Shown piece after piece: positions 445 to 55,265 of a stretch of DNA of 64,000 nt; position 1 is the stretch's first letter; every line of letters begins with the position of its first letter. A program made the position numbers and the translations under genes. Source of the DNA: Burkholderiales bacterium (GTDB lineage: Bacteria > Pseudomonadota > Gammaproteobacteria > Burkholderiales > SG8-41). The stretch spans positions 32,692 to 96,691 of the forward strand of contig JAYTWR010000193.1 of assembly GCA_043743335.1 (NCBI GenBank), in the 5' to 3' direction. The notes beneath the pieces were generated by a model. It was given only the letters and a program-made list of their open reading frames with translations, had not been told where the DNA came from and made no database searches.

Positions 445-2634
445 ATGCGCGTGCGCCGCAACCCGACAAAACCAGCACGCCTAACCTTCATGCCGCGATT
501 GGACGATCAACTGCAAAAAGCATGGGGCGCATTGCAAAGCGGCAACCTCGTCGGCGCCATCGGCGTTCTCGAAACCCTACTCCAGCGTGCGCCAGCCAAT
601 CCGCAAGCGCTGTGCCTGCTGGGCATGGCGCGCGTTGCAGCGGGCGATGCGCTCAACGCAGTAGCGCCACTGGAGCAATCGCTCAAGTCAGATGCGCGCA
701 ATGGCATGGCGCTGGACAGCTTGGGCCTTGCTTTTTTAAGCTTGGATCGTTTTGCCGACGCCGCGCAAGTGTTACAGCGGGCGGCCGAGATACCCGATGC
801 GCCGGCGGTCGTCTTCATGCGACTGGGGCTGGCGCTGCTGCATCTGAACGATGCGGCCGGCGCGGTGCAGCATCTGTCGCGCGCCGTGCGTCTGGACCCC
901 GCGGACCTCAATGGCAAACTGAATCTCGGCAAGGGCTTGTTGCGATTAGGTGATGCCGCAGCGGCGCGCGAGCAATTTTTAGCGGTGTTGCAAGAGGCCC
1001 CTAACGATTTGAATGCGCACGAGGGCGTCGCACAAAGTGGTGTGGCCTTGGGGCGTTTGCAAGAAGCCCTACCGCATCTGCGTTTTGTATCCGCTGCCGA
1101 GCCGCAAAACAGCGTCGCGCTATATGGTTTAGCGTCAGTGCTCTTTGAAACGGGCCAATTGGAAGAGGCTGAAATTCTGGCCGAGCGCCTGCTGACGCAA
1201 CAGCCTGATGTGGCTCACGCCTATACCTTGCTTTGTAACTGCTTGTTTATTAACAATAAATTTGATAAGGCTTTGGCGCTTTTGGAGCAGGGCTACGAGC
1301 GCACTGGCGATGGCGAACTGCTGGGTCTGCTGACCTTTCAGTATCGGCAAATCTGCGATTGGCCCAAATGGCGGGCGTCGTGGGACAAGCTGGCGCCGCT
1401 GGTGGACACCCGCGCGGCGTTAGGCAGTCCGTTTTGGCTGTTGTGTGAGCCGATTACCGCCGCGCAACAACTGCGCTACACGCAAGCATGGGCCAAGGCG
1501 CGCTTTAACGGCATTCTCCCCATGCCGCCCGCAGGTAACACTGCGCCGCGCGAAGGCCGCCGCTTGCGCGTGGGTTATTTGTCATCGGATTTTCAGGAGC
1601 ACGCCGCTGCCTATTTGATTGCAGATGTCATCGAACATCACGACCGCAGCCGTTTTGAAACATTTGCGTATTCGTATGGCCCGCAAGACAACAGCGCCAT
1701 GCGCCAACGCCTGCTGCTGGCGTTTGATCACTTTGTCGACATTGCGTGGGAGACCGACGACGCGGCTGCTGCACGCATCCGTGCTGATCAGATCGACATT
1801 CTGGTGGAACTCAAAGGCTACACCGTGGGCGACCGCATCACTATCATGGCGCGCCGACCCTGCAACATACAGGTGACGTGGCTGGGTTATCCCGGCACCA
1901 CCGGCGCGCCGTTTGTGGATTACCTGATTGCCGACGCCTACATTATTCCGCCGGGCGAAGCGTCAACGTGCTGCGAGCAGGTCGTGCGCATGCCGCACAG
2001 CTACCAGCCGAATGACCGCAAGCGCGTGGTTGCCGAGCCATTAAGCCGTGCCGAGTACGGCCTGCCCGAACGTGGACACCTATTTTGCTGTTTCAACCAA
2101 ACGTACAAGATCACGCCGGATGTATTTGCGGTGTGGATGCGCCTGCTGCAACGCATACCCGAAAGCGTGCTGTGGCTGGTGGATGGGCCTTCGCTGACGA
2201 AGGAAAATCTGTGGCGCGAAGCCCAGTCGTTGGGCGTTGAGCGAAACCGACTCATTTTCGCGACACGCAAGCCCTATGCAGAGCATCTTGCGCGGTACCG
2301 TGTGGCGGATCTTGCGCTCGATACCTTTCCCTACACCTCACACACTACGCTAAGCGATGCCTTGTGGTGTGGTTGCCCGACCGTGGGCTTGCGTGGCGAA
2401 ACGTTTGCCTCGCGGGTTTCGGGTAGCCTGCTCATGGCGGCAGGACTGCCAGATTTGATTACGCATAATCTTGACGATTACGAGCAACTGGCCTGTCAGA
2501 TTGCTGGTAGCGCAGACGTCCTGAAAAACCTGCGCTCAAGGGTGGCGCAAGCCAAGGCAACGGCACCGCAATTTGACTCAGCTTTGTTCGCACGCGACCT
2601 CGAAGCAATTTTCGAAACCCTGATCCGACGATGA
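445..2634 (+). CDS. TPR-repeat protein with C-terminal GT41 (O-GlcNAc transferase/SPINDLY-like) glycosyltransferase domain
   Basis: 729-aa ORF. The N-terminal half has TPR-like A/L-rich 34-aa periodicity. The C-terminal half carries GYLSSDF..EHHDRSRFE, WLGYPGTTGAPFVDYLIAD, FCCFNQTYKITP and LDTFPYTSHTTLSDALWCGCP, typical of bacterial OGT-like enzymes. The start could instead be the ATG at 490. Confidence 0.85.
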   Translation: MRVRRNPTKPARLTFMPRLDDQLQKAWGALQSGNLVGAIGVLETLLQRAPANPQALCLLGMARVAAGDALNAVAPLEQSLKSDARNGMALDSLGLAFLSLDRFADAAQVLQRAAEIPDAPAVVFMRLGLALLHLNDAAGAVQHLSRAVRLDPADLNGKLNLGKGLLRLGDAAAAREQFLAVLQEAPNDLNAHEGVAQSGVALGRLQEALPHLRFVSAAEPQNSVALYGLASVLFETGQLEEAEILAERLLTQQPDVAHAYTLLCNCLFINNKFDKALALLEQGYERTGDGELLGLLTFQYRQICDWPKWRASWDKLAPLVDTRAALGSPFWLLCEPITAAQQLRYTQAWAKARFNGILPMPPAGNTAPREGRRLRVGYLSSDFQEHAAAYLIADVIEHHDRSRFETFAYSYGPQDNSAMRQRLLLAFDHFVDIAWETDDAAAARIRADQIDILVELKGYTVGDRITIMARRPCNIQVTWLGYPGTTGAPFVDYLIADAYIIPPGEASTCCEQVVRMPHSYQPNDRKRVVAEPLSRAEYGLPERGHLFCCFNQTYKITPDVFAVWMRLLQRIPESVLWLVDGPSLTKENLWREAQSLGVERNRLIFATRKPYAEHLARYRVADLALDTFPYTSHTTLSDALWCGCPTVGLRGETFASRVSGSLLMAAGLPDLITHNLDDYEQLACQIAGSADVLKNLRSRVAQAKATAPQFDSALFARDLEAIFETLIRR

Positions 2635-2683
2635 AGCTTGAAAAACGTCTATTTCACCAAAGTTCCGGTTTGGCGCAACGGGA

Positions 2684-2977
2684 CTACCTGATCGAGAATT
2701 CGACGGGCGGTGTGGTTCTAAGCTTGCGCTCCTTGCGTACGACTGCCGCGCGCACGGCGTGCGCGATATCCGCTTGCGTTGCCGGTCGGCGGCGAGTCGC
2801 AAGAAGGCCGTAAGCCTCCTCGGGCGCAAAGCGCTTTCCGGTGTCAACAGGGCGCAGCAGTATCCCTTGTGCTGTGCGCTCGAACGCCACCTCACCGCCG
2901 ATGCAGATTTGCCCTGCCTCGCGTAAGTGGCGTGGAATCACGATTTGCCACTTGTTGGAAACCTTTGACGTGTCCAT
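2684..2977 (-). CDS. AbrB/MazE/SpoVT-family antitoxin-like DNA-binding protein (no intact partner toxin)
   Basis: 97 aa. WQIVIPRHLREAGQICIGGEVAFERTAQGILLRP is a swapped-hairpin AbrB-type domain, and the C-terminal tail resembles VapB-type antitoxins. Confidence 0.7.
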   Translation of the reverse strand: MDTSKVSNKWQIVIPRHLREAGQICIGGEVAFERTAQGILLRPVDTGKRFAPEEAYGLLATRRRPATQADIAHAVRAAVVRKERKLRTTPPVEFSIR

Positions 2978-3080
2978 CAGAGCGCTCCTAATTATTTAAC
3001 AATAATAACGTGCATTGTGCCGCGCTCCCGCCGGGCTTGCAACACGAACGCTGCGCCACGCTTGTTCGTCAATCGGAAAA

Positions 3081-3144
3081 CACCCATAAAAAAACGGGTG
3101 CCGAAGCGCCCGTTAAATCTCAACTTAAAGGTGTAAAGCTAAGT
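3081..3144. repeat. 64-bp direct repeat copy 1 (contains a minus-strand rho-independent terminator downstream of vapC)
   Basis: 62/64 identical to 4693-4756. The hairpin ACGGGTGC-CGAA-GCGCCCGT is followed by a T-run when read on the minus strand. Confidence 0.85.
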
Positions 3145-3179
3145 GTCGAAAAACGCGCAGGGCATTAGCCCGATTTCCA

Positions 3180-3599
3180 TTAAGGCGCGTTCCAAGGATT
3201 AATCAAATCGATGCCAGCGCCCTTATAGTCTCGCACGTTGCGGGTTGCCAGAACAAAACCTCGCCTGATAGTAATAGCGGCAATCGCGCAATCGCCAAAG
3301 TGAATCGGATTACCCGCTGCTTGCGTGCCCGCGAACACACGCCCAAATGCGTGCGCGCTGTCCTGATCGAACGATAGTACACGCCCCTCAAACTGGGCGA
3401 CTAATTCTGTCGTCGCGCCCTGCAACGCCGTGCGGCGTTTCCCCACGGGCAATGTCTCGATGCCCGCCTGTAGCTCGGCCAAGGTAATTGTAGTGAGGTA
3501 GAGCGTTTCCGGTGCCTGCCGATCCAACCAAGCCAACACCGCCGCATCAGGCTTCGATTTGAGGGGTTCGGAGACAAGATGGGTATCCAGAATAATCAT
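3180..3599 (-). CDS. vapC: PIN-domain toxin, VapC/FitB family
   Basis: 139 aa. It starts MIILDTHLVSE (PIN N-terminal acidic motif) and ends LATRNVRDY. It overlaps the upstream antitoxin gene by 4 bp. Confidence 0.85.
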   Translation of the reverse strand: MIILDTHLVSEPLKSKPDAAVLAWLDRQAPETLYLTTITLAELQAGIETLPVGKRRTALQGATTELVAQFEGRVLSFDQDSAHAFGRVFAGTQAAGNPIHFGDCAIAAITIRRGFVLATRNVRDYKGAGIDLINPWNAP

Positions 3600-3832: not shown

Positions 3833-3838
3833 AATTAA

Positions 3839-6063: not shown

Positions 6064-6354
6064 GTAAATCTCCTTTTAAATTAAGCTTCCCCCACGCAAC
6101 GCAAGCCACTGATATCGGGTGCAACTGAACGGGAGTGTTTTTACTGACGCACTACTACTTAAAATACGCGCCTATTATCTGTTTACCCTCGCTCTAGCTC
6201 AACAGTACACGGGATAAAACTGACACAGAGTCTGCGCTTGTTGTGTCCATGCAACAGGTGATAAATACGCGTTAACGGGTATATCTAACGCCGTTAAATC
6301 GCTTTGTGCCGCCGTAAAACCGGCGGCTCGCCTTTGCATAAAACCTACAATATC

Positions 6355-6373
6355 ATTTAAAATCAATTACTTA
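6355..6373 (-). repeat. AT-rich box, 15/19
   Basis: Lies 21 nt upstream of the TPR-GT9 gene start. Confidence 0.6.
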
Positions 6374-6393: not shown

Positions 6394-8349
6394 ATGCCCC
6401 TTGCAACCGACCGCCAAATTGAGTCCGCCTTACAAAACCACCAACAGGGTGACTTGACGGGGGCCATGGCCGCTTACCGCCAGATATTGACGCAGGCGCC
6501 CGGCGATACGCTGGCCACGGGGCTGCTGGGCACCGCATTGCTGCAATCGGGCGATGCGCAACAGGCTTTACCCTATCTAGAAGCCGCTGTATCCAAGCAG
6601 CGCAACAACGCCGGGTTTTTGGGCCATCTGGCGCAGGCTTACTTTGAATTGACTATGTATGCCGACGCGGCAGAGCATTTTCGCAAGGCCTTGCGACTTG
6701 CGCCCGCCGAAGCGCAGTTTCAGCTTGGCTTGGCCAATTCGCTGGCGCTGCAAGGGCAGTACGCCGAAGCGCGGCGTTTACTGGAGCGCGTGCTGGCGCG
6801 GCACCCGCAACACGCCATGGCTTGGTTCAATTTAGGCCATGTGCTGCGCGACTTGCACGAACCCGCGCCCGCGATAGCGGCGTATCAAAAAGTGTTGGCC
6901 CTCGCGCCGGATTTTGCCGAGGCACGCAATGCGCTAGGCAATGTGCTGCATACCGCCATGCAGCTTGCCGCTGCCGAGCGCGAATACCGGCTGTGCATTC
7001 GCGATGCGCCGCAGTTTTTGCCCGCGCGGCAAAATTTGGTGTCGGTGCTGATTGATCAAGGTCAATTTGATGCAGCAGAAGCCGCGTGTCGCGACATTCT
7101 GCAACTCGACCCGGCCAACGCCCACGCGCACGGCATGCTGGCGGACACTTTTAACGCCCGCGGACGTTTGGTGGACGCCACACGCCACTATGCCGAAGCG
7201 GCGCGACTCGCGCCGGACGACATCGCCACGCGCATCAGCCTCGCTACCAAGCTGTGCGATACCGGCGACATCACGGGCGGCCTGCGCGAATTTGGCGAGG
7301 TGCTGCAACAACAGCCGATAGCGCAGCCAGCGATGCCGGAACTACATCAGGCTTTATCGACGATGTTTCTCGCGCACGGGTTTTTGGCCGAAGGCTGGGC
7401 GCATTATCGTCAGCGGCCCGCGTTCATCGCGTTTCGCGACAAACTCGCTGGCGTCACACTGACGCAAACCTTGCCTGAAATTTTGGCGGGTTTGCCTATT
7501 AGCGTGTTACGTGAACAGGGGCTGGGCGACGAAATATTTTTCCTGCGCTACGCGCGCTTGCTGACGCAGCGCGGCGCGCGCGTGACGTATCGCTGCAGCG
7601 ATGCCATTGCCAGCTTGATCAAACGCTTGCCTGACGTGGCCGAGGTGATTGCCAGCGACGCCGCAGTGCCCGCCTGCTATGCGGCGATTATGGCTGGGGA
7701 TTTACCCCACGCGCTGGGCAATTTGCCGATAGAACTTGGCGGTGCCGATCCGCTTTGGGGGTTCCCTTGGACACAAGCCCATTATTGCGCGCTGCCGCAG
7801 CCGAGTATTCGGATCGACCCCTTGCCCGACCGCGTGGCGCAAATGCGCGCGCAGCTTGCCGAAATCGGCCCGCCACCCTACATCGGCGTCACATGGCGTG
7901 GCGGCACGCCCCCCAGCGAACAAGGCGCAGGCTCGTGGGTGCTGTTCAAAAACGTGGCCATTGCGCAACTGGGCGCTGCGTTAAAGCCCTGTAAAGGCAC
8001 GTTTATCGCCCTGCAACGCAACCCGGAGCCGGGCGAAATCGCTGCGCTGGAAGCCACACTTGGTGCAAAGGTTCACGATTTTACCCATAAAAACAAAGCG
8101 TTAGAGGATATGCACGCCCTGCTCGCGCTGATCGATGAGTACGTCGGCGTGAGCAACACCAATATGCACCTGCGTGCCGCCGCCGGCAAAACGGCGCGCG
8201 TGCTGGTGCCCGCACCCGCGGAGTGGCGCTGGATGGCGACGGGCGACGCGTCACCGTGGTTTCCCGGCTTTTCGGTGTACCGGCAAAGCCTACACGGCAC
8301 GTGGGACGCAGCGCTGAGCCAACTCCAGCACGATCTGACCGCGCGCTGA
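6394..8349 (+). CDS. TPR-repeat protein with C-terminal GT9 (heptosyltransferase-like) glycosyltransferase domain
   Basis: 651 aa. TPR repeats fill the first ~330 aa. The C-terminal part has GLGDEIFFLRYARLL and VGVSNTNMHLRAAAGKTARVLVP, resembling GT9 signatures. Confidence 0.6.
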   Translation: MPLATDRQIESALQNHQQGDLTGAMAAYRQILTQAPGDTLATGLLGTALLQSGDAQQALPYLEAAVSKQRNNAGFLGHLAQAYFELTMYADAAEHFRKALRLAPAEAQFQLGLANSLALQGQYAEARRLLERVLARHPQHAMAWFNLGHVLRDLHEPAPAIAAYQKVLALAPDFAEARNALGNVLHTAMQLAAAEREYRLCIRDAPQFLPARQNLVSVLIDQGQFDAAEAACRDILQLDPANAHAHGMLADTFNARGRLVDATRHYAEAARLAPDDIATRISLATKLCDTGDITGGLREFGEVLQQQPIAQPAMPELHQALSTMFLAHGFLAEGWAHYRQRPAFIAFRDKLAGVTLTQTLPEILAGLPISVLREQGLGDEIFFLRYARLLTQRGARVTYRCSDAIASLIKRLPDVAEVIASDAAVPACYAAIMAGDLPHALGNLPIELGGADPLWGFPWTQAHYCALPQPSIRIDPLPDRVAQMRAQLAEIGPPPYIGVTWRGGTPPSEQGAGSWVLFKNVAIAQLGAALKPCKGTFIALQRNPEPGEIAALEATLGAKVHDFTHKNKALEDMHALLALIDEYVGVSNTNMHLRAAAGKTARVLVPAPAEWRWMATGDASPWFPGFSVYRQSLHGTWDAALSQLQHDLTAR

Positions 8350-17693: not shown

Positions 17694-17712
17694 TAACTAG
17701 TTGATTTTAAAC
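17694..17712 (+). repeat. AT-rich box, 15/19
   Basis: Lies directly after the ubiE stop. Confidence 0.6.
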
Positions 17713-17895
17713 GATTTTTTATACTAATGTCCAAGTACATTTATTGTAATATGTGTGCCGTATTATTCGCACTATAATGGCATCGTGCCATTGAAATGCC
17801 ACTCAAGAGCATCCATCTATGGCTAAGAACTCGTTACGAGTTTTCTTTGTTGTAGCAATTCAGTCACGCTGGTGAAATAACCGAAAGAGGAAAAC

Positions 17896-18884: not shown

Positions 18885-21158
18885 ATGGCCACTTCCATTC
18901 CTCGGCAACTGGCGCTGGCCGAACAGCATTTCAGAAAAGGAAACCACGACTTCGCCGAACCCTTGCTGCGGGAAATTCTGTCGCGCACGCCGGCCCACAC
19001 CAAAGCGAATGAACTGCTGGGCTACATCACCGGCAATCGCGGGGAGTTGGACGTCTCGTTTGCGCTGCTGAAAACCGCCGTTGCTTCGCCCGAAGCCTCG
19101 GGAGAAGCCAGCTACTACTTGGGCAAACATTTTCTCGACCGGCAGTTATTCAGCGATGCTTGCGTCGCCTTCGAGCAAGCCTTAAGCCGCGCCGGCAATT
19201 TTTTTGAAGGGCTGCACGACCTCGCGGTCGCGATGACCGGAAGCGGCAATGCTGCGGCGGCGCTGGCGTTCTACGACAAGGCGCTGGCGCTGCGCCCCGA
19301 TTTCGCACAAGGCTGGTTCAACAAGGCTGTTGCGCTTGATGCGCTCAACCGGTTTGACGATGCGCTGCACAGTTACAACAAGGCGCTGGCGATTGATCCG
19401 AGCGACGCCACGGCGTGGTACAACCGCGGCGCGACCCTCAATGATCTGGGCCGCTACGATGAGGCCCTCGCCAGTCACGACAAAACCCTGGCGCTCGATC
19501 CCGCTCATGCAAAAGCTTGGTCGAATCGCGGCGTGACGCTGTCGGCGCTCAAGCGCTACAAAGAGGCGCTGGCATGTCACGAAAAAGCATTGTCGTTGCA
19601 GCCCGGCTTTGCAGAAGCTTGGGGCCGGGGCGCAGATGTCTTTAGCGAACTGAAATATCCCGACAAGGCGCTCACCTATTTCGCCAAGGCCTTGGCGTTA
19701 AAGGCCGATATTCCGTATGCGCAGGGCGGCTTGTTGCGCGCGCGCATGGCCCTGTGCCTGTGGACGGCGACACCCGGTGTTGGGCCTGCGACGTTGGCTA
19801 TCGGACAGCACTTCGAACAATTACTAACGGCTATCGATGCGCAGCAACGCGTAGCGACGCCGTTTGTGGCGCTTGCGATGCCGTCAACCTTGGCGCAACA
19901 ACGCCTTTGCGGTGAAATTTACAGCCGGGATCGCAGTCCGGTTGTCGCGCCTTACGGGCGAGCGCAATTCCTAAAAACAGACGGTCGCATCAGGATTGGT
20001 TATTTCTCCTGCGATTTCAGAACACATGCCGTGTCGTTTCTGACTGCGGGCTTGTTTGAGCACCACGACCGGTCGCGCTTTGAAGTTCACGCCTTTGCGC
20101 TCAGTGTGCCCGACGACGATCCCGTAACGGCCAGACTCAGGGCGGCGTTTGAGCATTTTCACAACGTCGAAAACCTGCCCGATCACGAGGTTGTCGAGCA
20201 GGCGCGTCGCCTAAACATCGATATCGCCATAGACCTTACCGGGCACACACAAGGTGCCCGCACCGGCATCTTTGCGCGCCGCGCCGCGCCTGTGCAAGTC
20301 AGTTATCTTGGCTTTCCCGGCACCATGGGCGCACCCTTCATCGATTACCTCGTCGCTGACAGTATTGTGGTTCCCGACGGCAATGCCGATGCGTATACCG
20401 AGAAAGTGGTGTTTCTGCCGGATTGTTTTCAAATCAATGATGCGGCTCGCGCTGTGGCGCCAGCCCCCTGCCGAGCGTCATGCGGCATACCTGATGAGGC
20501 GTTTGTTTTCTGCTCGTTCAATAGCGTCTACAAAATCAATCCGCGCATCTTCGATGTGTGGATGAATATCATGCAGGGCGTGCAACACAGCGTGCTGTGG
20601 TTAGTCGGCGAAACCGATGCGCAACAGAAAAACCTCCGCGCTTGGGCGGCGACGCGCGGCGTTGCCCCGCACCGGCTGATATTTGCCGGCACACTGCCGT
20701 ACGCCGGGCATCTGGCGCGGTATGCCTTGGCCGATCTGGTGTTGGATACACTGCCGTTTAATGGCGGCACCACCACCAGCGATGCCCTGTGGGGCGGCGC
20801 GCCGGTATTAACCTGTACCGGCAATACATTTGCCGGACGCATGGCTGCGAGTTTGCTGCATACGATGGGCCTGCCGGAACTGGTGACGGGGTCGCTCGAT
20901 GACTATCAGACGCAAGCCGTGCATCTCGCGCACCACCCAGCCAAGCTGGAAGCGCTGCGACAACGACTCAGTGCAAATCGCGCTACGTCTCCTTTGTTCA
21001 ACACGCGCTTGGGCACACGGCATATCGAAGCCGCCTACGTTGAAATGCACCAACGCGCTGCTGCCGGTCTGCCGCCAGCCCATTTGCGCATCGCGCACTT
21101 GACTGAAACGGCAGCGGCAGACACCGCGGGAAACCGACCTCGGCATTCAATGGGATAA
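18885..21158 (+). CDS. TPR-repeat protein with C-terminal GT41 (OGT/SPINDLY-like) domain, paralogue of 445-2634
   Basis: 757 aa. It has canonical TPRs (AWYNRGATLNDLGRYDEALASHDKTLALDP and others) and the same C-terminal blocks as 445-2634 (GYFSCDF..EHHDRSRFE, YLGFPGTMGAPFIDYLVAD, FCSFNSVYKINP, LDTLPFNGGTTTSDALWGGAP). Confidence 0.85.
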   Translation: MATSIPRQLALAEQHFRKGNHDFAEPLLREILSRTPAHTKANELLGYITGNRGELDVSFALLKTAVASPEASGEASYYLGKHFLDRQLFSDACVAFEQALSRAGNFFEGLHDLAVAMTGSGNAAAALAFYDKALALRPDFAQGWFNKAVALDALNRFDDALHSYNKALAIDPSDATAWYNRGATLNDLGRYDEALASHDKTLALDPAHAKAWSNRGVTLSALKRYKEALACHEKALSLQPGFAEAWGRGADVFSELKYPDKALTYFAKALALKADIPYAQGGLLRARMALCLWTATPGVGPATLAIGQHFEQLLTAIDAQQRVATPFVALAMPSTLAQQRLCGEIYSRDRSPVVAPYGRAQFLKTDGRIRIGYFSCDFRTHAVSFLTAGLFEHHDRSRFEVHAFALSVPDDDPVTARLRAAFEHFHNVENLPDHEVVEQARRLNIDIAIDLTGHTQGARTGIFARRAAPVQVSYLGFPGTMGAPFIDYLVADSIVVPDGNADAYTEKVVFLPDCFQINDAARAVAPAPCRASCGIPDEAFVFCSFNSVYKINPRIFDVWMNIMQGVQHSVLWLVGETDAQQKNLRAWAATRGVAPHRLIFAGTLPYAGHLARYALADLVLDTLPFNGGTTTSDALWGGAPVLTCTGNTFAGRMAASLLHTMGLPELVTGSLDDYQTQAVHLAHHPAKLEALRQRLSANRATSPLFNTRLGTRHIEAAYVEMHQRAAAGLPPAHLRIAHLTETAAADTAGNRPRHSMG

Positions 21159-23380: not shown

Positions 23381-24907
23381 TTGCTGAGGCGCACAGTGCT
23401 GATCTGGTTTGTCGTCATTTACCTGTTGATTTCGCTCGCCATCGGCTTGATCGCCGCCACGCGCGTACACAACGCAAAAGACTTCGCGATCGCGGGCCGC
23501 CATTTGCCGCTGCCCATCGTGATGGCCACCGTGTTCGCCACGTGGTTTGGGGCGGAAACGGTGCTCGGTATTTCCGCCACCTTCGTCAAAGAGGGTTTGC
23601 GCGGCGTGGTAGCCGACCCCTTTGGTTCAAGCCTGTGCCTGATTTTTGCCGGCCTGTTTTTCGCCGCCAAACTCTATCGCATGAATCTGCTTACCATTGG
23701 CGATTACTATCGCTTGCGCTATAACCGCACGGTTGAAATTTTATGCACGCTGGCCATCGTCACGTCGTACTTGGGCTGGGTGGCGGCGCAAATCAAGGCG
23801 CTGGGACTGGTGTTTTTTGTGGTCACCGATGGTGCCATCAGCCAGCAAACCGGCATGATCATCGGCGCAGCCATCGTGCTCACCTACACCACGTTCGGCG
23901 GCATGCTGTCGGTGGCGATACTCGATTTTGTGCAAATGACCGTCATCATGGGCGGCATGCTTTACATCGCCTACGTCATCGCCGGCATGACCGGCGGTGT
24001 GGGTGCGGTAGTGGCGCACGCCAACGCGGCGGGCAAACTGGCGTTTTTCCCCGAGGCGTCAGTGACGGCATGGGTGCCGTTCATCGGCGCGTGGATCACC
24101 ATGATGTTGGGCTCGATTCCGCAGCAAGATGTGTTCCAGCGCATCACTTCGGCCAAGGATGAAAAAACCGCCGTGCGCGGCTCGGTGCTGGGCGGCTCGA
24201 TTTATTTTCTGTTCGCGTTCGTGCCGATGTTTCTGGCCTACGCCGCGACGCTGGTAGATCCGAAGATATTCAACGAGTTGCTCACCAGAGATTCGCAACT
24301 GGTGCTGCCCACGCTGATACTTCAACACACGCCGCTGTTCGCGCAGGTGGTGTTTTTCGGCGCACTGCTATCGGCGATCATGAGCTGTTCGAGCGCTACC
24401 TTGCTCGCGCCGTCGGTGGCGTTTTCGGAAAACATTCTGCGCAACATTTTCCCCGGCATGAGCGATCGCGTGTTTTTGCGCACCATGCGCATCGTGCTGG
24501 TGTGCTTTGCGTGCATTGTGCTGGTCTTTGCACTGAATTCCAGTGCGAGCATTTTCAAAATGGTGGAAAACGCCTACAAAATCACGCTGGTGTGTGCGTT
24601 CTTTCCGTTGTGTTTGGGGCTCTACTGGAAGCGCGCCACCACGCAGGGCGCACTCGCAGGCATCCTGTGCGGATTTTTCACTTGGATTTTGCTGGAGTAT
24701 TTCGGTACTCACAACGACGTGTGGCTGCCGCAATTAATCGGCTTTTGCGCCGCCGGGGCCAGCATGGTAGCGGGATCGTTGTTGCCGCAAGTGATCGGCC
24801 GACCCACGCCCTTGCATCCTGAAGCGCACGCGCCGCATCCGCATGCCTCGACACAACACGTGCCCGCCACCGGGCATCACCACACCCACGGCACGCATCG
24901 CCCTTAA
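23381..24907 (+). CDS. sodium:solute symporter (SSF) family transporter with His-rich C-terminal tail
   Basis: 508 aa. DFAIAGRHLPLPIVMATVFATWFGAETVLG and multiple TM helices. Non-ATG start (TTG at 23381 or GTG at 23396). Confidence 0.85.
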   Translation: MLRRTVLIWFVVIYLLISLAIGLIAATRVHNAKDFAIAGRHLPLPIVMATVFATWFGAETVLGISATFVKEGLRGVVADPFGSSLCLIFAGLFFAAKLYRMNLLTIGDYYRLRYNRTVEILCTLAIVTSYLGWVAAQIKALGLVFFVVTDGAISQQTGMIIGAAIVLTYTTFGGMLSVAILDFVQMTVIMGGMLYIAYVIAGMTGGVGAVVAHANAAGKLAFFPEASVTAWVPFIGAWITMMLGSIPQQDVFQRITSAKDEKTAVRGSVLGGSIYFLFAFVPMFLAYAATLVDPKIFNELLTRDSQLVLPTLILQHTPLFAQVVFFGALLSAIMSCSSATLLAPSVAFSENILRNIFPGMSDRVFLRTMRIVLVCFACIVLVFALNSSASIFKMVENAYKITLVCAFFPLCLGLYWKRATTQGALAGILCGFFTWILLEYFGTHNDVWLPQLIGFCAAGASMVAGSLLPQVIGRPTPLHPEAHAPHPHASTQHVPATGHHHTHGTHRP

Positions 24908-24938
24908 ACGCTACCGCGCTTGGCGCAGACAAAATTCC

Positions 24939-24957
24939 CTTTAAAAACAATTAGTTA
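24939..24957 (-). repeat. AT-rich box, 16/19
   Basis: Lies in the convergent junction between the symporter and the DHH gene. Confidence 0.65.
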
Positions 24958-28937: not shown

Positions 28938-28942
28938 AAACT

Positions 28943-28961
28943 CAATTAAATCAATATGTTA
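28943..28961 (-). repeat. AT-rich box, 16/19, overlapping the hemJ start codon and abutting the REPIN right end
   Basis: Sequence CAATTAAATCAATATGTTA. Confidence 0.6.
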
Positions 28962-29743: not shown

Positions 29744-30938
29744 TGGCGCTTTGAGCACGGACGCGCAATTTTTCGCTAGCTGCCCGCGCGGGCTCGAAGC
29801 CGTGCTCGCAGCGGAACTCAACGCGCTGCAGGCGCGCGCCGTCAAAGCGGTAGAGGGCGGCGTACATTTTGCTGGGCCGTTGACTATCGGCTATGCCGCC
29901 AATTTGCACTCGCGTGTGGCGAGCCGCGTGCTGTGGCGCGTGGGTGTGGCACGCTACCGTCACACGAATGCGGATCAGGATATTTACGACGCCACCGGCA
30001 AAATCGATTGGCCCAAGCTATTCGCCGTAGAGCGCACGCTGCGGGTAAACGTTTCCGCGATCAAAGCGCCGGTGAAAAGCCTCGATTTCATTACGCTGCG
30101 TATCAAAGACGCTATCTGCGATGTGTTTCGCGCGCGCGGCGGGCAGCGACCCAGCATCGACACGCATGCGCCCGACGTGCGTGTGCATGCGTTTCTTACT
30201 GCCGCAGATCTCACGCTGTATCTCGATCTGTCGGGCGAGCCGCTGTTCAAACGCGGTTACCGGCAAGAGGCCGGCGAAGCGCCGCTGCGGGAGAATCTCG
30301 CTGCTGGCATGCTGGCGCTGTCGGGCTGGACGCCGGATCAGCCGCTGCTCGACCCGCTGTGCGGCAGCGGCACCATTTTGTGCGAAGCCGCGCAAATCGC
30401 CACGCAGCGTGCCCCTGGCATTGGTCGCGCGTTTGGTTTTGAGAAGCTATTGAATTACGACGCAGCAGCGTGGACAGCGCTGCGGGAGACCGCTTACGCT
30501 GCTGAAAATAACACAATAAAATCAATTATTTACGGCTCCGACTTGCGCGGCGACGCGCTGGAGCTGGCACGCGCCAATCTGGACGAACTCGACCTCACCG
30601 CGCAAGTCACACTGAAACAAGCCAACGTGTTTGAAATGCCCGCGCCCGCTCCGGCCGGCGTCATCGTTACCAACCCGCCGTACGGCGTGCGGCTGGAAGA
30701 CCGCGATCAACTCGCAGCGTTTTATCCCAAACTCGGCGACGCGCTGAAAAAGCGCTACAGCGGCTGGACGGCGTATATTTTGTCGTCGGACATGCAATTG
30801 GCGAAAGGCATCGGACTGGCTGCTTCTAAGCGCACGCCGCTGTTTAACGGCGCACTGGAATGCCGGCTGTTCGAATACAAAATGGTGGCGGGTTTCATGC
30901 GGCGAGTGAAGCCGGGGGCAACGCCCGACGCCCATTAA
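29730..30938 (+). CDS. THUMP-domain class I SAM-dependent RNA methyltransferase (RlmL/RlmK-like)
   Basis: Starts FFASCPRGLEAVLAAEL and carries LDPLCGSGTILCEAA and the VTNPPYG catalytic motif. Start taken at the in-frame ATG at 29730, overlapping the HIRAN gene end by 14 nt. Confidence 0.8.
   Translation: MSICDGALSTDAQFFASCPRGLEAVLAAELNALQARAVKAVEGGVHFAGPLTIGYAANLHSRVASRVLWRVGVARYRHTNADQDIYDATGKIDWPKLFAVERTLRVNVSAIKAPVKSLDFITLRIKDAICDVFRARGGQRPSIDTHAPDVRVHAFLTAADLTLYLDLSGEPLFKRGYRQEAGEAPLRENLAAGMLALSGWTPDQPLLDPLCGSGTILCEAAQIATQRAPGIGRAFGFEKLLNYDAAAWTALRETAYAAENNTIKSIIYGSDLRGDALELARANLDELDLTAQVTLKQANVFEMPAPAPAGVIVTNPPYGVRLEDRDQLAAFYPKLGDALKKRYSGWTAYILSSDMQLAKGIGLAASKRTPLFNGALECRLFEYKMVAGFMRRVKPGATPDAH
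30514..30532 (-). repeat. AT-rich box, 18/19, inside the RNA methyltransferase coding sequence
   Basis: CAATAAAATCAATTATTTA encodes NTIKSIIY. Confidence 0.75.
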
Positions 30939-34860: not shown

Positions 34861-34879
34861 TAACTAATTGATTTTATTG
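34861..34879 (+). repeat. AT-rich box TAACTAATTGATTTTATTG (reference copy; reverse complement matches the IHF consensus)
   Basis: Lies in the proC-yggT spacer. Identical 19-mer at 42362-42380. Confidence 0.8.
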
Positions 34880-34889
34880 ATATTTTTAT

Positions 34890-35447
34890 ATGTTGCTTGA
34901 AGCGGTAGCGTTCGTCATTCGCGCGCTGGCTGAATTTTTCGCCGGCGTGTTGCTGTTGCGTTTTTGGATGCAGGTGAGCCGCGTTGCCGGTCGTAATCTG
35001 CTGTCTGAATTCGTGCAGCCGTTGACCAACTTCGCGGTATTGCCCGCACGCCGCATCATCCCCGGTTTGTGGGGCTGGGATCTGGCGACACTGGTGCTGG
35101 CTTGGCTCACGTTGATACTCGAAATCGTGTTGCTGCTGCTGTTACGTGGTGGCACGCTGGCACCGGGCATGGTGCTGATGATGGCGCTGCTGCTGTTGCT
35201 GCGGCTGGCAGTGTATTTCGCTATCGGCGCGATTTTTGTGCAGGCGATTCTGTCGTGGGTGAATCCCGCCAGCCCGTTGGCACCTGTGGTGTCGGCCCTG
35301 ACGCGCCCGCTACTGCGCCCGATACAGCGCATCGTGCCGCCCATCGGCATGGTTGATTTGTCACCACTGGTGGCACTGCTGATTCTGCAACTGATCTTGA
35401 TGGTGCCGCTGGCGTGGCTGGGCAGCCTGCTCAACGCCGGGTTCTGA
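34890..35447 (+). CDS. YggT-family membrane protein
   Basis: 185 aa with duplicated YggT-like TM modules (LLLRFWMQ..., LSWVNPASPLAP...). It follows proC, as is typical. Confidence 0.8.
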   Translation: MLLEAVAFVIRALAEFFAGVLLLRFWMQVSRVAGRNLLSEFVQPLTNFAVLPARRIIPGLWGWDLATLVLAWLTLILEIVLLLLLRGGTLAPGMVLMMALLLLLRLAVYFAIGAIFVQAILSWVNPASPLAPVVSALTRPLLRPIQRIVPPIGMVDLSPLVALLILQLILMVPLAWLGSLLNAGF

Positions 35448-40313: not shown

Positions 40314-41008
40314 GATATTTTCTCTCTTAAAAACAAGTAGTTATGATCTATATACTCCAGTACTGCATCGGTAGTGAAGTAGCGCGCACTGCGCTTTGCT
40401 GCGGTGGCCGCGATGGCCGCGCGAATGGCGGTGGCGGAAATATCCAGCGCGGTAATCGGCACGACGGCTATGCGCCCCGCAGGTGACTGGTGCAACGCCG
40501 TGGCTGCGGCTGCGGCTGCGGCTGTGCCAACATCAGCGTCCAAGCGGCGCAGCGCGAATTCTTGTGTGAGCGCGGCATCGCTGAGCTGCGTCAACAGCGC
40601 GCCCGGCCGGTGCGCTACAGCCAGATGCGCGAGGCCGAAAATCTCTTGCCAGCGATGCCAGCGGTGAAAACCGAGAAACGCATCTGCGCCCATGATCAAC
40701 ACCAGCGGCTGCGCTGCGCCGAGCTCGGCGCGCAACGCGGTAAGCGTGTCGAAGCTGTACGACAAACCGTCGCGGCGTGTCTCGCGGTCATCCACGTTAA
40801 ACAGCGGATTGCCCGCCGTGGCGAGCCGCACCATCGCAAGCCGGTGCGCGGCGCTGGTTTCCGGCGTGGCGCGATGCGGCGGCGTACCGCCGGGGATGAA
40901 GCGCACTTCGCTTAAAGCCAGCGACTCCGCGACTTCCTGCGCCAGCCGCAAGTGCCCGTAGTGTACCGGATCGAAAGTACCGCCGAGAATGCCGATGGCG
41001 CCTTGCAA
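40310..41008 (-). CDS. nadD: nicotinate-nucleotide adenylyltransferase
   Basis: Contains GILGGTFDPVHYGHLRLA and ISATAIR. Start is uncertain; a TTG at 41008, 1 nt after the aceF stop, is preferred over the ATG at 41062, which would overlap aceF by 53 nt. Confidence 0.8.
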   Translation of the reverse strand: MQGAIGILGGTFDPVHYGHLRLAQEVAESLALSEVRFIPGGTPPHRATPETSAAHRLAMVRLATAGNPLFNVDDRETRRDGLSYSFDTLTALRAELGAAQPLVLIMGADAFLGFHRWHRWQEIFGLAHLAVAHRPGALLTQLSDAALTQEFALRRLDADVGTAAAAAAATALHQSPAGRIAVVPITALDISATAIRAAIAATAAKRSARYFTTDAVLEYIDHNYLFLREKIS

Positions 41009-42344: not shown

Positions 42345-42361
42345 AGTGTGCGCTTAGTTAT

Positions 42362-42380
42362 AACTAATTGATTTTATTGG
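42362..42380 (+). repeat. AT-rich box, 19/19
   Basis: Lies in the aceE-aceF spacer. Confidence 0.8.
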
Positions 42381-42390
42381 GTTTTATTTT

Positions 42391-45087: not shown

Positions 45088-45237
45088 GTCGATACGATTA
45101 CCTTTGTAAGGCCGGGTTGGAACTGGCTAGAAGCGGGCCAAGGGCGCGCAAGCCTTGGTGATGCCCTACCCGAGAGCGCCTGAATTATAGCATTCGCGCT
45201 TGTCGTTTCCCTGCGAGAGAAATACGAGATTCTATTG

Positions 45238-45256
45238 TAACTATATGATTTTATTT
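45238..45256 (+). repeat. AT-rich box, 16/19
   Basis: Lies just downstream of the rlpA stop (45260) in the aceE upstream region. Confidence 0.65.
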
Positions 45257-45259
45257 AGT

Positions 45260-46180
45260 TTATTTTATGAGCACCAAAGGCTTCACGCCCAGCGTCTGGC
45301 TGATTTTTTCAGCCGTCAGCCGCGCATCGGCTGGGCTGGCGTACGGCCCGGCGAGCACGCGAAAAAGGTTGTCGCGCTGAACCACCTGCACTTGCGGTGA
45401 CAGCCAATCCACATCGCCACGCAGGCGCGCCGCATAGGCGTCGGCGTTTTCGCGTGAACCAAATGCCGCTAATTGCAAGTGTACGCCGCCGGCTTCAACC
45501 GACAGCGGAATCGGCGGCGGCGCAGCGGGCGCAGCCGATGCCGCGACGGGTGCCGACGAAGGCGGCACACCCGCTATGCCCGAAGTGCCGGGCATGATGA
45601 GTTCGACATCCACCTGCGCGCTCCCGCCTGCGACAAACCCCAGTTTGTAAGCGGCGGTATACGACAAATCGATCAAGCGGCTATCGATAAACGGGCCGCG
45701 GTCGTTCACCCGCACCACCACGGATTTGCCGTTGGCGACGCTGGTCACGCGCACGTAGCTCGGCAGCGGCAGTGTAGGATGCGCCGCGCTCATGCCGTAC
45801 ATGTCGTAGGTTTCGCCGGTGGAGGTGAGTTTGCCGTGATAGCGGCGGCCATACCACGACGCCACGCCGCGCGCGCGATACGGCGCCACAGCAGTCATCG
45901 GCACATAATTGCGGCCCATCACGGTATACGGGCGCAGGGCACCGCGATGTAGCGGCTCCACGCGCGGCACGGCGTCGGGGATGCTGTCGACGTTCGCTGG
46001 CGGGTTAGCGCCGGGACCGTCGTCCAGATAATAACCGCCACTTTTTGACGTAGGCGCAGACGCAGACGGGGGCGCAGAAGCCACCGGTGGCGGCGACGCT
46101 CGCCGGCCACCAAACAAGCCGCAACCGGCGAGCAGCGCAAGTGCTGCGACACCCAGCGCCATCTGCAGCGCGCGCCTCAT
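45260..46180 (-). CDS. rlpA: septal ring lytic transglycosylase RlpA (DPBB plus SPOR domains), lipoprotein
   Basis: The start at 46180 gives MRRALQMALGVAALALLAGCG (lipobox) with an ATGA overlap onto the rodA stop. GVASWYGRRYHGKLTSTGETYDM is the DPBB domain, and the C-terminus is a SPOR domain. Confidence 0.85.
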   Translation of the reverse strand: MRRALQMALGVAALALLAGCGLFGGRRASPPPVASAPPSASAPTSKSGGYYLDDGPGANPPANVDSIPDAVPRVEPLHRGALRPYTVMGRNYVPMTAVAPYRARGVASWYGRRYHGKLTSTGETYDMYGMSAAHPTLPLPSYVRVTSVANGKSVVVRVNDRGPFIDSRLIDLSYTAAYKLGFVAGGSAQVDVELIMPGTSGIAGVPPSSAPVAASAAPAAPPPIPLSVEAGGVHLQLAAFGSRENADAYAARLRGDVDWLSPQVQVVQRDNLFRVLAGPYASPADARLTAEKISQTLGVKPLVLIK

Positions 46181-52154: not shown

Positions 52155-52231
52155 GCTCGCGCTGTGCGCTCGGCTTACCGGAAAACCTCTAACCCGCCTT
52201 CTTTCGCACGCAACTTCGCCAGTAACACGCC

Positions 52232-53698
52232 ATGCAACCCGATCCGCACCAAGCAACGCTGCGTCAACTGTCTGATGGCTTGGCCGCCGGAAAGTTCTCC
52301 AGCGCTGAGATAACACAAGAATTTCTCAATAAAATCAATAAGTTAAACACAACGCTGAATTGCTTTATCAGCGTTGATAGCGACAAAAGCCTGTCTCAAG
52401 CGCGCGCTGCCGACGCGCTGCGCGCCGCCGGTAAAGCGCAACCGCTGACGGGCGCGCCCCTCGCCCAGAAAGATATATTCTGCGCACAGGGCTGGCTCAC
52501 CACTTGCGGCTCGAAAATGTTGTCGAATTTCGTGTCGCCCTACGACGCGCATGTCATTGAGCGTTTTAACGCGGCAGGCGCGGTGAATCTGGGCAAAACC
52601 AATATGGACGAGTTCGCCATGGGCTCGTCCAACGAAACCTCGTTTTATGGCCCGGTGCGTAATCCGTGGGATCAAACGCGCGTGCCCGGCGGCAGTTCCG
52701 GCGGGTCGGCGGCGGCGGTTGCGGCTCGGCTGGCTCCGGCGGCCACCGGTACCGACACCGGCGGCTCTATCCGCCAGCCAGCGGCACTCACCGGCATTTG
52801 CGGGCTGAAACCGACTTATGGCGTGGTGTCACGCTACGGCATGATCGCTTTTGCCTCCAGCCTCGACCAAGGCGGGCCGATGGCACGTACTGCGGATGAT
52901 TTGGGCCTGATGCTTAACGTGATGGCGGGTTTTGACGCGCGCGATTCCACCAGCCTGCAACGTGACGCTGAGGATTACACACGCGATCTGGCCCAGCCAT
53001 TAAAGGGCAAACGCATCGGCTTGCCCAAAGAGTTTTTTGCCGCAGGGGCCGCCGCCGATGTGATCAAAGCCGTGGAAGCGGCCATCGCGGAATACCGCAA
53101 ACTCGGCTGCGAAATCGTCGATGTAAGCCTGCCGAATATGGGGCTGTCGGTGCCGGTGTATTACGTGCTGGCACCCGCCGAGGCGTCCAGCAATCTGTCG
53201 CGTTTTGACGGCGTACGCTACGGCCACCGCGCCAAAGACTACACTGACCTCACCGAAATGTATGAAAAAAGCCGCGCCGAGGGCTTTGGCGCGGAGGTCA
53301 AACGACGCATTCTGATCGGCGCTTACGTGCTGTCGCACGGCTACTACGACGCCTATTACATCCGCGCGCAAAAACTGCGACGGCTGATTGCACAGGATTT
53401 CACCGAGGCCTTCAAGCACTGCGACGTCATCATGGGGCCGACCAGCCCTTCCACGGCGTTTAGAATCGGCGAGAAATCCGGCGATCCGGTGCAAATGTAT
53501 TTGTCAGATATTTACACCATCGCCGTCAATTTGGCCGGACTGCCGGGCATGTCGATACCCTGCGGCTTTGATAGCGGCGGGTTGCCTGTGGGCCTGCAAA
53601 TCATCGGCAATTATTTTTCCGAAGCGCACATGCTAAACGTAGCGCATCAGTATCAGTTGGCTACCGCTTGGCACCTGTGGGCACCCAGCGGTATTTAA
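52232..53698 (+). CDS. gatA: Asp/Glu-tRNA amidotransferase subunit A
   Basis: 488 aa carrying the amidase signature [13 protein letters not shown]...[12 protein letters not shown]. Confidence 0.95.
52327..52345 (-). repeat. AT-rich box, 18/19, inside gatA coding sequence
   Basis: CAATAAAATCAATAAGTTA encodes LNKINKLN. Confidence 0.75.
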
Positions 53699-53719
53699 AC
53701 CTTTACACGATCACGGGAG

Positions 53720-53811
53720 GTGAACGAGTAAGCGGATGAACAAGTAAACGAGTAGACCCTGACCAACAGTGGGGTTACTCGTTTACTTGTTCACCCGTTC
53801 ACCCGCTCACG
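53720..53811. repeat. palindromic element in the gatA-gatB spacer (perfect 18-bp stem, arms made of short GTGAAC-type repeats)
   Basis: TGAACAAGTAAACGAGTA (53737-53754) pairs with TACTCGTTTACTTGTTCA (53777-53794) around a 22-nt loop. The outer arms are partly complementary. Confidence 0.65.
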
Positions 53812-53819
53812 AATTTAAA

Positions 53820-55265
53820 ATGAATTGGGAAGTCGTCATCGGTCTCGAAACCCACGCGCAACTGTCGACGGTGTCGAAAATATTTTCCGGCGCGTCCACG
53901 GCTTTTGGCGCGGCGCCCAACACGCAGGCCTGTGCGGTAGATATCGCGCTGCCCGGCGTGTTGCCAGTGCTGAACCACGGGGCAGTCGAGCGCGCCATAC
54001 GCTTTGGTCTTGCCGTGGGGGCCAAGATCAATCCACGCTCGGTGTTCGCGCGCAAAAATTATTTTTATCCAGATTTGCCCAAGGGCTACCAAATCAGCCA
54101 ATACGAGCTGCCGATCGTCGAAGGTGGCAGCATCAGCTATCTAGTTGATAATAAAGAGAAAATTGTTCAACTCACGCGCGCGCACTTGGAAGAAGACGCC
54201 GGCAAATCGCTGCACGAAGCATTTAGCGACGCGACGGGCATTGATCTGAATCGTGCCGGCACGCCGCTGCTGGAAATTGTCACCGAGCCCGAGATGCGCT
54301 CGGCGGCCGAGGCCGTGGCCTACGCCAGGACGCTGCACGCGCTGGTGCGCTGGATCGGCATTTGCGACGGCAACATGCAGGAAGGCTCGTTCCGTTGCGA
54401 TGCCAACGTGTCCGTAAGGCGCGCGGGCGAAGCGCTCGGCACGCGCTGCGAAATCAAGAACCTGAATTCGTTCCGCTTTCTCGAACAGGCGATCAATTAC
54501 GAAGTGCGACGCCAGATCGACATCATCGAAGACGGCGGCAAGATCAAGCAGGAAACGCGTCTGTTTGATCCCGACAAAAACGAAACCCGCTCCATGCGCT
54601 CGAAAGAGGACGCGCACGACTACCGCTATTTTCCGGATCCGGATTTGTTACCGCTGGCCGTCAGCAACGCGACGATAGAAGCCATACGCGCCACGCTGCC
54701 AGAATTGCCGCAAGCCAAGCAAGCGCGCTTCGCTGCGACGTATGGGGTGACGGCTTACGATGCTGCGCTGCTCACTGGCAGCCGCGAGCTGGCCGATTAT
54801 TTTGAGGCCGCCGTGCAAAACGCCGACGCAAAAACCGCCAAACTGTGCGCCAACTGGGTCACCGGGCAACTCAACGCCCGCCTCAACGAGGAAAGCGGGG
54901 AGATCGCGAGCAGCAAAATCAGCAGCGCACAATTGCGCCGTTTGGTGGATCGCATTGCCGACGGCAGCGTTTCCGGCAACACCGCCAAGGGCATTTTCGA
55001 CGCCATTTGGGCGGGCGATGCCAGTGGTCCGGATGCCGCAGATATCCTTATAAAAAACAAAGGGTTACAGCAAATATCCGACATCGGCGCGATCGAGAAA
55101 ATCGTCGACGACGTACTCACCGCCAACGCGCAGCAAGTCGCCGACTACAAGGCCGGCAAGGAAAAAGCATTCAATTCGCTGGTCGGCCAAGCCATGAAGG
55201 CAACCAAGGGCAAGGCCAATCCACAGCAGGTGAACGAGATTTTGAAGCGCAAGCTGGCGCTATAA
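53820..55265 (+). CDS. gatB: Asp/Glu-tRNA amidotransferase subunit B
   Basis: The ATG at 53820 gives [15 protein letters not shown]..., followed by HLEEDAGK. The ORF-track extension into the palindrome was rejected. Confidence 0.95.

Follow-up and report, generated by a model that had tools for sequence, protein, structure and literature searches.

In Escherichia coli, approximately 1,040 regions bound by integration host factor (IHF) have been found in a genome of 4.6 Mb (PMC3333857), and the consensus of the site as used in synthetic promoters reads CAATTTATTGATTTTA (PMC7314903). One dispersed family of such sites is RIB/RIP, that is, the bacterial interspersed mosaic element (BIME) class BIME-1, which, in the account of Boccard & Prentki 1993 given in PMC3333891, carries in its L linker an IHF site flanked by inverted REP (repetitive extragenic palindromic) sequences. 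Here we describe a family of AT-rich boxes, each of 29–30 bp, dispersed through a 64-kb stretch of DNA of 59% G+C from a Burkholderiales bacterium (contig JAYTWR010000193.1, positions 32,692 to 96,691; this whole stretch is called the window). The dispersed boxes are confirmed by direct counting, and the family is amplified in particular lineages. From the sequence, we consider it probable that IHF (IhfA/IhfB), or a very close protein of the IHF family, reads the boxes, which would then be predicted high-affinity sites. A search of open-access papers returned no report of a box family of this kind; the sequence matched only the synthetic IHF consensus site.

With the 19-mer TAACTAATTGATTTTATTG as the query, seven copies with up to three mismatches were found in the window, against 0.00 expected from dinucleotide shuffles. 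Allowing four mismatches gave 11 copies (0.06 expected), and allowing five gave 18 (0.5 expected under a Markov-1 model). When the window was scored with a box matrix, there were 8 hits of at least 30 bits, compared with 0 in 300 simulations whose background was the window's own AT-rich segments only, a comparison that is partly circular because the matrix derives from the same eight copies that it scores. The observed copy numbers thus lie far above the shuffled, Markov-1 and AT-rich-segment backgrounds, in line with the proposal in an earlier note on this DNA that the recurrence is unlikely to be due to chance. That note had reported copies in both orientations, which we also find, together with hand-counted identities, every one of which was reproduced by a full mismatch profile: 19/19 at 34861 and 42361, 18/19 at 30514 and 52327, 16/19 at 24939, 28943 and 45238, 15/19 at 17694 and 6355, 14/19 at 28217 and 40325, 13/19 at 54138 and 11/19 at 1236. 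The single slip was in the second 19/19 copy, which begins at 42361 and not at 42362. Some of the weakest entries do not hold as copies. The 11/19 match at 1236 is at chance level in the mismatch profile, as is the partial core at about 4617, and the match at 54138 is a doubtful copy even though its count was right. By contrast, what had been taken for a partial core at about 62390 is a genuine copy, matching at 15/19 from 62391 on the minus strand, and further 14/19 copies at 10598, 8085, 9371, 47714 and 58389 had been overlooked.

The conserved sequence is longer than the 19-mer. In an alignment of 48 box copies from approximately 205 kb of DNA of the same clade, conservation continues past the 19-mer for about 10 nt on its 3′ side (..ATTG-A-w-w-W-W-TTTT), so that the conserved block measures about 29 nt. 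Information content stands above background from about position −6 to position +29 and is near zero outside, an extent in keeping with the IHF footprint of about 30–35 bp. The conserved positions are T1-A2-A3, T8T9G10, T12–T15 and a T-run at 23–27 (T in 27–42 of the 48 copies), and nearly invariant positions number about 20. The consensus on the A-rich strand reads AAAA-WW-ww-T-CAATAAA-(A/T)... and ends in A(A/T)CAA-WTAS-TTA, which includes the IHF core WATCAANNNNTTR; the core T is replaced by A in about one-third of the copies. Read on the core strand, the T-run at 23–27 is an A-tract lying 10–14 nt 5′ of the W of WATCAA, the same offset as that of the A6 tract in the lambda H′ site (AAAAAAGCATTGCTTATCAATTTGTTG), which lies 9–14 nt 5′ of the W. 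No dyad symmetry was detected, and the box is non-palindromic. Perfect matches to the core WATCAANNNNTTR are in 8–9-fold excess, with 12 in the window (1.4 expected) and 15 in related loci (1.9 expected). Seven of the 12 window matches are boxes already listed (6355, 17694, 28943, 30514, 34861, 42361 and 52327), and the boxes at 24939 and 45238 carry one mismatch to it. Positions 1–16 of the box also agree with the published consensus CAATTTATTGATTTTA at every non-N position.

We scanned both strands of the 48.5-kb lambda genome with a matrix built from the window boxes only. The top hit, at 74–102, fills the gap between R3 (53–68) and R2 (105–120) of cosB, and this gap is the I1 IHF site (PMC4856287). 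The third hit, at 27675–27703, is the TATCAATATATTA site in the P arm of attP (H2). Hits two and four fall upstream of pL and at pR′, two places at which IHF sites have been reported. The earlier note had recognized an IHF core (AATCAA-N4-TTA) preceded by an A/T tract in the reverse complement of the 19-mer. This description has broadened into a full layout, in which an A-tract stands one helical turn 5′ of the core, and a matrix of the boxes recovers known lambda sites; the boxes show every sequence-level feature of an IHF site that was examined.

Genes around the boxes were assigned by Pfam and by synteny with related contigs. The boxes of the window, with the identity of the 19-mer and the matrix score, are as follows.

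6345–6373, minus strand: box, 15/19, 28 bits; in the divergent region between porin and tetratricopeptide-repeat (TPR) genes, 20 nt upstream of the ATG of the TPR gene.
17694–17722, plus strand: box, 15/19, 41 bits; 4 nt past the ubiE stop and 173 nt ahead of the next gene.
24929–24957, minus strand: box, 16/19, 43 bits; 21 nt past the stop of a sodium:solute symporter gene (23381–24907, plus strand).
28207–28235, minus strand: weaker box, 14/19, 27 bits; inside an alpha/beta-hydrolase gene (27911–28525).
28933–28961, minus strand: box, 16/19, 43 bits; at the hemJ start, where the TTA of the box overlaps the ATG (GTTATGG).
30504–30532, minus strand: box, 18/19, 44 bits; wholly within rlmL (29676–30938, plus strand).
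34861–34889, plus strand: box, 19/19, 49 bits; occupies the proC/yggT spacer, its 3′ end abutting the yggT ATG at 34890.
40315–40343, minus strand: weaker box, 14/19, 19 bits; within the final codons of nadD, 1 nt ahead of the rsfS start.
42361–42389, plus strand: box, 19/19, 49 bits; occupies the 46-bp aceE/aceF spacer.
45238–45266, plus strand: box, 16/19, 44 bits; between the rlpA stop and the aceE promoter, overlapping the last 7 nt of rlpA.
52317–52345, minus strand: box, 18/19, 44.5 bits; inside gatA (52232–53698, plus strand), where it encodes FLNKINKLN with AT-rich codons.
62381–62409, minus strand: weaker box, 15/19, 25 bits; between ECF sigma factor and metallophosphoesterase genes, containing AAGGAG.

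The earlier note had placed most copies exactly at gene junctions, which is true of part of the family. Of the nine strongest boxes, seven are non-coding or reach a few bases into the edge of a gene (downstream of ubiE and of the symporter gene, at the hemJ start, in the proC/yggT and aceE/aceF spacers, between rlpA and the aceE promoter, and upstream of the TPR gene). The other two, at 30514 in rlmL and 52327 in gatA, are fully intragenic, and the copies at 28217, in the hydrolase gene, and at 54138, inside gatB, likewise contradict placement at junctions only. Non-coding DNA nevertheless makes up just 12.5% of the window and holds 8 of the 12 boxes that score 24 bits or more, so that boxes are about 16-fold denser there than in coding DNA. 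Among the nine boxes that are non-coding or at a gene edge, six end no more than 20 nt from a downstream start codon, and the box at 62381 ends 3 nt upstream of the metallophosphoesterase ATG. The genes yggT and hemJ, and aceF in the relatives (for example, L117 12709–12739), start 0–8 nt after a box, and no obvious Shine–Dalgarno sequence precedes yggT, hemJ or aceF; their translation may rely on the box's AU-rich transcript or be coupled to that of the upstream gene. Both aceE and aceF are on the minus strand, so their messenger RNA contains the A-rich reverse complement of the 42361 box. Together with its 5′ flank, this box also forms a perfect 14-bp palindrome (TTAGTTA/TAACTAA, 42354–42367) just upstream of the aceF start, and no other copy has such a palindrome. 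An exact 11-mer, GCGGTAGCGTT, occurs twice in the window, at 24907–24917 (minus strand), in the intergenic DNA after the symporter gene, and at 34902–34912 (plus strand), in the first codons of yggT, on both occasions 22–23 nt from a box on its 3′ side. Chance is unlikely to have placed two exact copies at matching offsets, although copies with one mismatch are not in excess.

The boxes keep their positions in related genomes. AceE of the window is at most 93% identical to any record, and its closest named relatives are metagenome-assembled Burkholderiales. We compared contigs chosen by AceE identity (L117–L119, 88–92%; L120, 84%) and by RlmL identity (L121–L124, 75–82%). In L117–L119, boxes occur at four places shared with the window: rlpA/aceE, aceE/aceF, the nadD 3′ end at the rsfS start and, in L117 and L119, proC/yggT. 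The aceE/aceF box has an orthologue in each of L117, L118 and L119, the nadD/rsfS box has stronger orthologues there (20–32 bits) in the same place, and the gatA box has a weaker one (29–34 bits) in gatA of L118 and L119. Orthologues of the proC/yggT box are found in L117, L119, L123 and L124. In L120, boxes lie elsewhere, with none at the aceE, aceF or yggT sites, and proC and yggT overlap. The box at the hemJ start, found 0–8 nt upstream of the hemJ ATG in L121, L122 and L124, and the rlmL box are both retained in the contigs chosen by RlmL. Around these conserved boxes the flanking intergenic DNA has diverged, in L117–L119 as in L121–L124. The check for conservation at orthologous sites that the earlier note had proposed therefore comes out in favour of a maintained signal.

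The copy within rlmL is kept at the same codons in L121–L124. It encodes ..NNTIKSIIY just ahead of a GSD motif, and the proteins of the clade read ENNTIKSIIY-GSD and variants of it, encoded by AT-rich codons, whereas more distant RlmL homologues outside the clade have the GC-rich segment RVRKPERLPVF-GSD. There is no insertion at the box relative to E. coli RlmL. An AT-coded segment in the clade in place of a GC-rich one, without insertion, means that the DNA motif has shaped the RlmL protein. With 48 copies in 205 kb, the boxes of the clade occur about once per 4.3 kb, a density similar to that of the IHF-bound regions of E. coli. The signal, which the earlier note had called genome-wide, thus extends to approximately 205 kb of related DNA, short of the whole genome.

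Upstream of aceE, the position of the box is fixed relative to a putative promoter.

45181–45189, minus strand: extended −10 element of the putative aceE promoter, TGCTATAAT, with TATAAT at 45184–45189.

No good −35 element was found for this promoter. The TGnTATAAT sequence is conserved in L117–L119, and exactly 48 bp separate the TTA end of the box from the aceE TATAAT in each of the four genomes (the window and L117–L119), even though these 48 bp are themselves largely different. A fixed distance with a diverged interior argues for a distance- or phase-dependent role of the box at the aceE promoter. With a transcription start about 7 nt past the −10 element, the box would cover approximately −61 to −89. 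Giladi et al. (1998; listed in PMC1784095) reportedly described lambda pL as a sigma-70 promoter assisted by an IHF bend.

To place the box outside the clade, we scanned public genomes with a degenerate form of the 19-mer. The scan gave 116 listed matches (L001–L116), and the source genome is not among them. In at least 19 of these 116 listed matches, the box overlaps the 3′ CCA end of a transfer RNA (tRNA) gene by 1–2 nt (tRNA..CCA|ATAAAATCAATnAnTTA; for example, L003 6199–6217, L019 1808–1826 and L059 2061–2079), far above chance. These tRNA-end boxes occur in Acidobacteria and in alpha-, beta-, gamma- and deltaproteobacteria, and they involve many tRNA isotypes. In L059, L104 and L001, the gene for a tyrosine integrase ends within the TAA of the box, and on this account the tRNA-end boxes with an integrase resemble the att junctions of integrated elements, an IHF site keeping a constant distance to the core. 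In four Pseudomonas loci, the 19-mer pattern has enhancer-protein palindromes on one side and a sigma-54 promoter on the other (TGGCAC-N5-TTGCT upstream of gcvH, for example). Several other betaproteobacterial assemblies carry 3–5 boxes per 8 kb. In a methanotrophic gill symbiont of Bathymodiolus and a related gammaproteobacterium, the 19-mer sits within a longer multi-copy repeat (ACTCGATGTTCAAGTTTTT-box-ATAATTTTACTGACAAAGAAAGCATCAACATCATTGTAAATCAATCACTT; L013 2751–2769 and 6615–6633, L055 48–66 and 1792–1810, and L066), which may be the end of a mobile element.

Viral contigs (L152–L271) contain the box in 106 unique contexts, about one-third of which have family-specific repeats common to both flanks. 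Among unrelated viral-contig contexts, 59 contain the exact 20-mer TAAGTCATTGATTTTATTGG; across all 106, position 4 is G in 86% and position 6 is C in 59%. Two of the repeat-flanked viral boxes are beside integrase genes (L171 5965–5983 and L186), and the integrase that was scanned with Pfam, whose box is flanked by iterons, has an arm-binding domain. In L164 (3117–3135), the box is just upstream of a small-terminase gene, which is the arrangement of lambda cosB. These contexts suggest a near-universal optimal IHF site in att and cos-like regions of phages. Taken together, the full site layout, the lambda hits of the box matrix, the agreement with the published consensus, the classical IHF positions in other genomes and the positional conservation in relatives support the reading of the boxes as IHF sites. 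The first proposal for them, a selected protein-binding signal, gains from the same consensus match, classical positions and conservation.

From these sequence features we infer binding by IHF, bending of the DNA and all the functional consequences that might follow. Each 29–30-bp box would present a whole recognition layout on one face of the helix, comprising the A-tract, about one helical turn and then (A/T)A(T/A)CAA-N4-TTA, and the bound IHF heterodimer would bend the DNA sharply into a U-turn. At aceE, by analogy with lambda pL or ilvPG, the bend would probably bring upstream DNA, or a factor bound to it, onto RNA polymerase. In tight spacers, at gene 3′ ends and in gene interiors, the boxes would more plausibly serve as anchors in the architecture of the nucleoid or form barriers that separate domains of supercoiling. 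Anchor- or barrier-like roles of this sort have been discussed for E. coli BIMEs, of which BIME-1 carries an IHF site (PMC3333891; PMC6907758). The AU-rich transcript of a box may, in addition, keep the starts of downstream cistrons that lack a Shine–Dalgarno sequence unstructured; given that both orientations occur, a role in translation would be a side benefit at most.

Searches with tblastn using E. coli IhfA, IhfB and HupA found no gene for them in the window or in the related loci searched, which are a small part of a genome. IHF is general in Proteobacteria, and other Burkholderiales surely have it; yet in 122.5 kb of Burkholderiales loci outside the clade (RlmL identity at most 62%) no hit reaches even 15 bits and the core is nowhere matched perfectly. 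Ordinary IHF sites are therefore an insufficient account, one that leaves both the amplification (more than 30-fold) and the near-identity of the copies unexplained. In clade DNA, the only sigma-54 promoter matches next to boxes are chance matches inside genes. Moreover, the genomes vary in concert at positions that IHF reads weakly or is not thought to read, with genome-specific variants at positions 4, 7 and 11. At position 11, A is found in 9 of 10 window copies and in all nine copies from L124 and L110, as opposed to T in 11 of 13 copies from L117–L119, and the difference between the window and its relatives includes three orthologous sites. At variable positions, identity is 0.60 within genomes and 0.49 between them (permutation p < 0.0005). 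Concerted change of this kind suggests co-evolution with a drifting, lineage-specific reader, or a process of homogenising drive. In its strongest form, this would make the boxes a lineage-specific chromosomal 'punctuation', a set of near-perfect sites amplified more than 30-fold relative to sister lineages, kept in place firmly enough to reshape proteins and drifting together with a co-evolving reader. It could take two versions, either a code for domain boundaries or nucleoid folding used by a specialized IHF or a self-signal like the DNA uptake sequences (DUS) of Neisseria that employs an IHF-type sequence; even jointly, we regard the two as unlikely.

It is likewise doubtful that the boxes are read by some other lineage-specific DNA-binding protein, either nucleoid-associated or a global regulator, with an IHF likeness that is partial or coincidental. 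Such a reader would suit boxes that are confined to one betaproteobacterial lineage group (0 hits in the 122.5 kb of other Burkholderiales), whose 20 or so conserved positions hold far more information than typical IHF sites and which have genome-own variants at positions 4, 7 and 11. However, it would have to mimic the entire IHF layout, from the A-tract offset and the core to the TTR element. The best lambda hits of the box matrix are known IHF sites, the same sequence stands at attP-like, cosB-like and sigma-54 positions in unrelated hosts, and a non-palindromic site of 29 bp suits a DNA-wrapping heterodimer better than a typical regulator. In our own comparison, the box centre TCAATAAAAT agrees at 8 of 10 positions with the H-NS nucleation motif, TCGATAAATT (PMC6907758), but the boxes flank housekeeping genes and not the AT-rich foreign islands that an H-NS-type silencer would occupy. 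The proposals of an element target site or an uptake signal, both raised in the earlier note, fit the data less well than IHF does. An uptake or 'self' signal like Neisseria DUS or the uptake signal sequences (USS) of Haemophilus, homogenized by biased uptake and recombination, would account for the two orientations, for variants that evolve in concert by lineage, for intragenic copies in poorly conserved protein segments with rare codons, and for a block of about 30 bp that, like USS, has AT-rich flanks; the window also contains pilT and pilU, genes for the retraction of type IV pili. DUS and USS occur about once per kb, with a non-coding bias much weaker than that of the boxes. The boxes, at one per 4.3 kb, are 4–5 times sparser than this and about 16-fold biased towards non-coding DNA. 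They form no inverted, terminator-like pairs, their exact 48-bp spacing from a promoter points to a local architectural role, and their identity with an IHF site would be a coincidence, all of which makes an uptake signal improbable.

The proximity of boxes to start codons invites an explanation at the level of RNA, in which an AU-rich leader replaces the Shine–Dalgarno sequence for S1-dependent initiation, or an RNase E site lies between cistrons. The six of nine non-coding or edge boxes that end no more than 20 nt from a start, the lack of an obvious Shine–Dalgarno sequence at yggT, hemJ and aceF, and the AU-richness of the box in either orientation are what such an element would predict. 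Conservation base by base despite mixed orientation (the A-rich strand is sense in about 11 copies and the T-rich strand in 4) is not, and neither are copies that follow stops far from any start (17694 and 24929) or lie deep in genes (rlmL and gatA). Rfam has no family at any box. We therefore consider an RNA element very improbable, and at most a secondary benefit of where boxes are tolerated. More improbable still is that the boxes are relics of a small mobile or repeat element of the MITE (miniature inverted-repeat transposable element), REP or BIME kind, although the copies are dispersed, almost identical and for the most part intergenic, the proC/yggT spacer with its box is a clean extra segment compared with the gene overlap in L120, and the 19-mer is part of a longer repeat in the Bathymodiolus symbiont. 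The boxes lack terminal inverted repeats, hairpins, flanking palindromes and target duplications, and similarity ends at their edges: in 60 nt on each side of nine boxes no consistent inverted repeats were found, and across the 48 copies the flanks are unconserved. The rlmL copy is not an insertion, and the orthologous positions of boxes across genomes with 75–93% protein identity indicate that the copies are old and have been maintained in place. Membership of RIB/RIP (BIME-1) or of a MITE family is ruled out by the lack of flanking palindromes and terminal inverted repeats. A reading of the box as a sigma-70 promoter was also rejected, because the T/A-rich hexamers that follow TTGATT come only at a spacing of about 13 bp, compared with the usual 16–18 bp, and because copies also occur after stops far from the next gene start and inside genes. 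To our knowledge, none of the consensus sequences of Fur, Fis, CtrA, Ter, dif, parS or the DnaA box fits. A reader belonging to or very close to the IHF family thus remains our preferred account of the boxes.

Other features of the window are recorded here for completeness. Three large TPR-repeat proteins are encoded (445–2634, 6394–8349 and 18885–21158), two of them with a C-terminal GT41 (O-GlcNAc-transferase-like) domain. For the 6394–8349 protein, which the earlier note had labelled TPR-GT9, Pfam gives TPR repeats only. A PIN-domain toxin gene lies at 3180–3599. On the minus strand, positions 60149–60225 hold a SAM-II riboswitch (37.3 bits with the Rfam model SAM_alpha, whose threshold is 36), upstream of a metX–metW pair (58934–60127 and 58341–58937). 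There are no tRNA genes in the window.

If IHF does read the boxes, the clade would offer a natural setting where such sites are uniform enough, and conserved enough in position, to be predicted from their sequence alone, a prediction made difficult in E. coli by the degeneracy of its sites. The roles of chromosomal IHF sites outside promoters (between cistrons, at gene ends and within genes) would become open to direct tests, and the joint change of a nucleoid protein's specificity and of hundreds of sites could be studied. The 48-bp spacing at aceE is a concrete, testable promoter architecture, and the box is usable as an annotation landmark for metagenome-assembled genomes. No new kind of molecular system is revealed. 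What is unusual is the uniformity of the family, its restriction to certain lineages, the retention of intragenic copies and the concerted variants; the kind of signal is itself well known.

Set beside the systems that are known, the boxes share with the canonical IHF sites of lambda (attP H′ and H2, and cos I1) a common core consensus, the A-tract offset and a non-palindromic extent of about 30 bp. They differ from known chromosomal IHF sites, which are degenerate, in being nearly invariant at about 20 positions and in having genome-specific preferences at positions that are 'N' in the consensus. As at IHF-assisted promoters, both sigma-54 and sigma-70 (lambda pL and ilvPG), the aceE box lies upstream at a strictly conserved distance, whereas most of the boxes here are not upstream of a recognizable promoter. 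They resemble RIB/RIP as dispersed, conserved IHF sites outside genes, often at 3′ ends or between genes, with a presumed architectural or barrier role; relative to RIB/RIP placement, some boxes follow stops (17694 and 24929) and others precede starts or lie in genes, and the intragenic copies and the copy at a fixed promoter distance set the boxes apart. Like the DUS dialects of the Neisseriaceae and the USS of the Pasteurellaceae, they are over-represented in a lineage-specific manner, occur in either orientation and have intragenic copies in tolerant protein segments. In conclusion, the boxes belong to a known kind of signal, which in this clade forms an amplified, lineage-specific, unusually uniform and stand-alone family.

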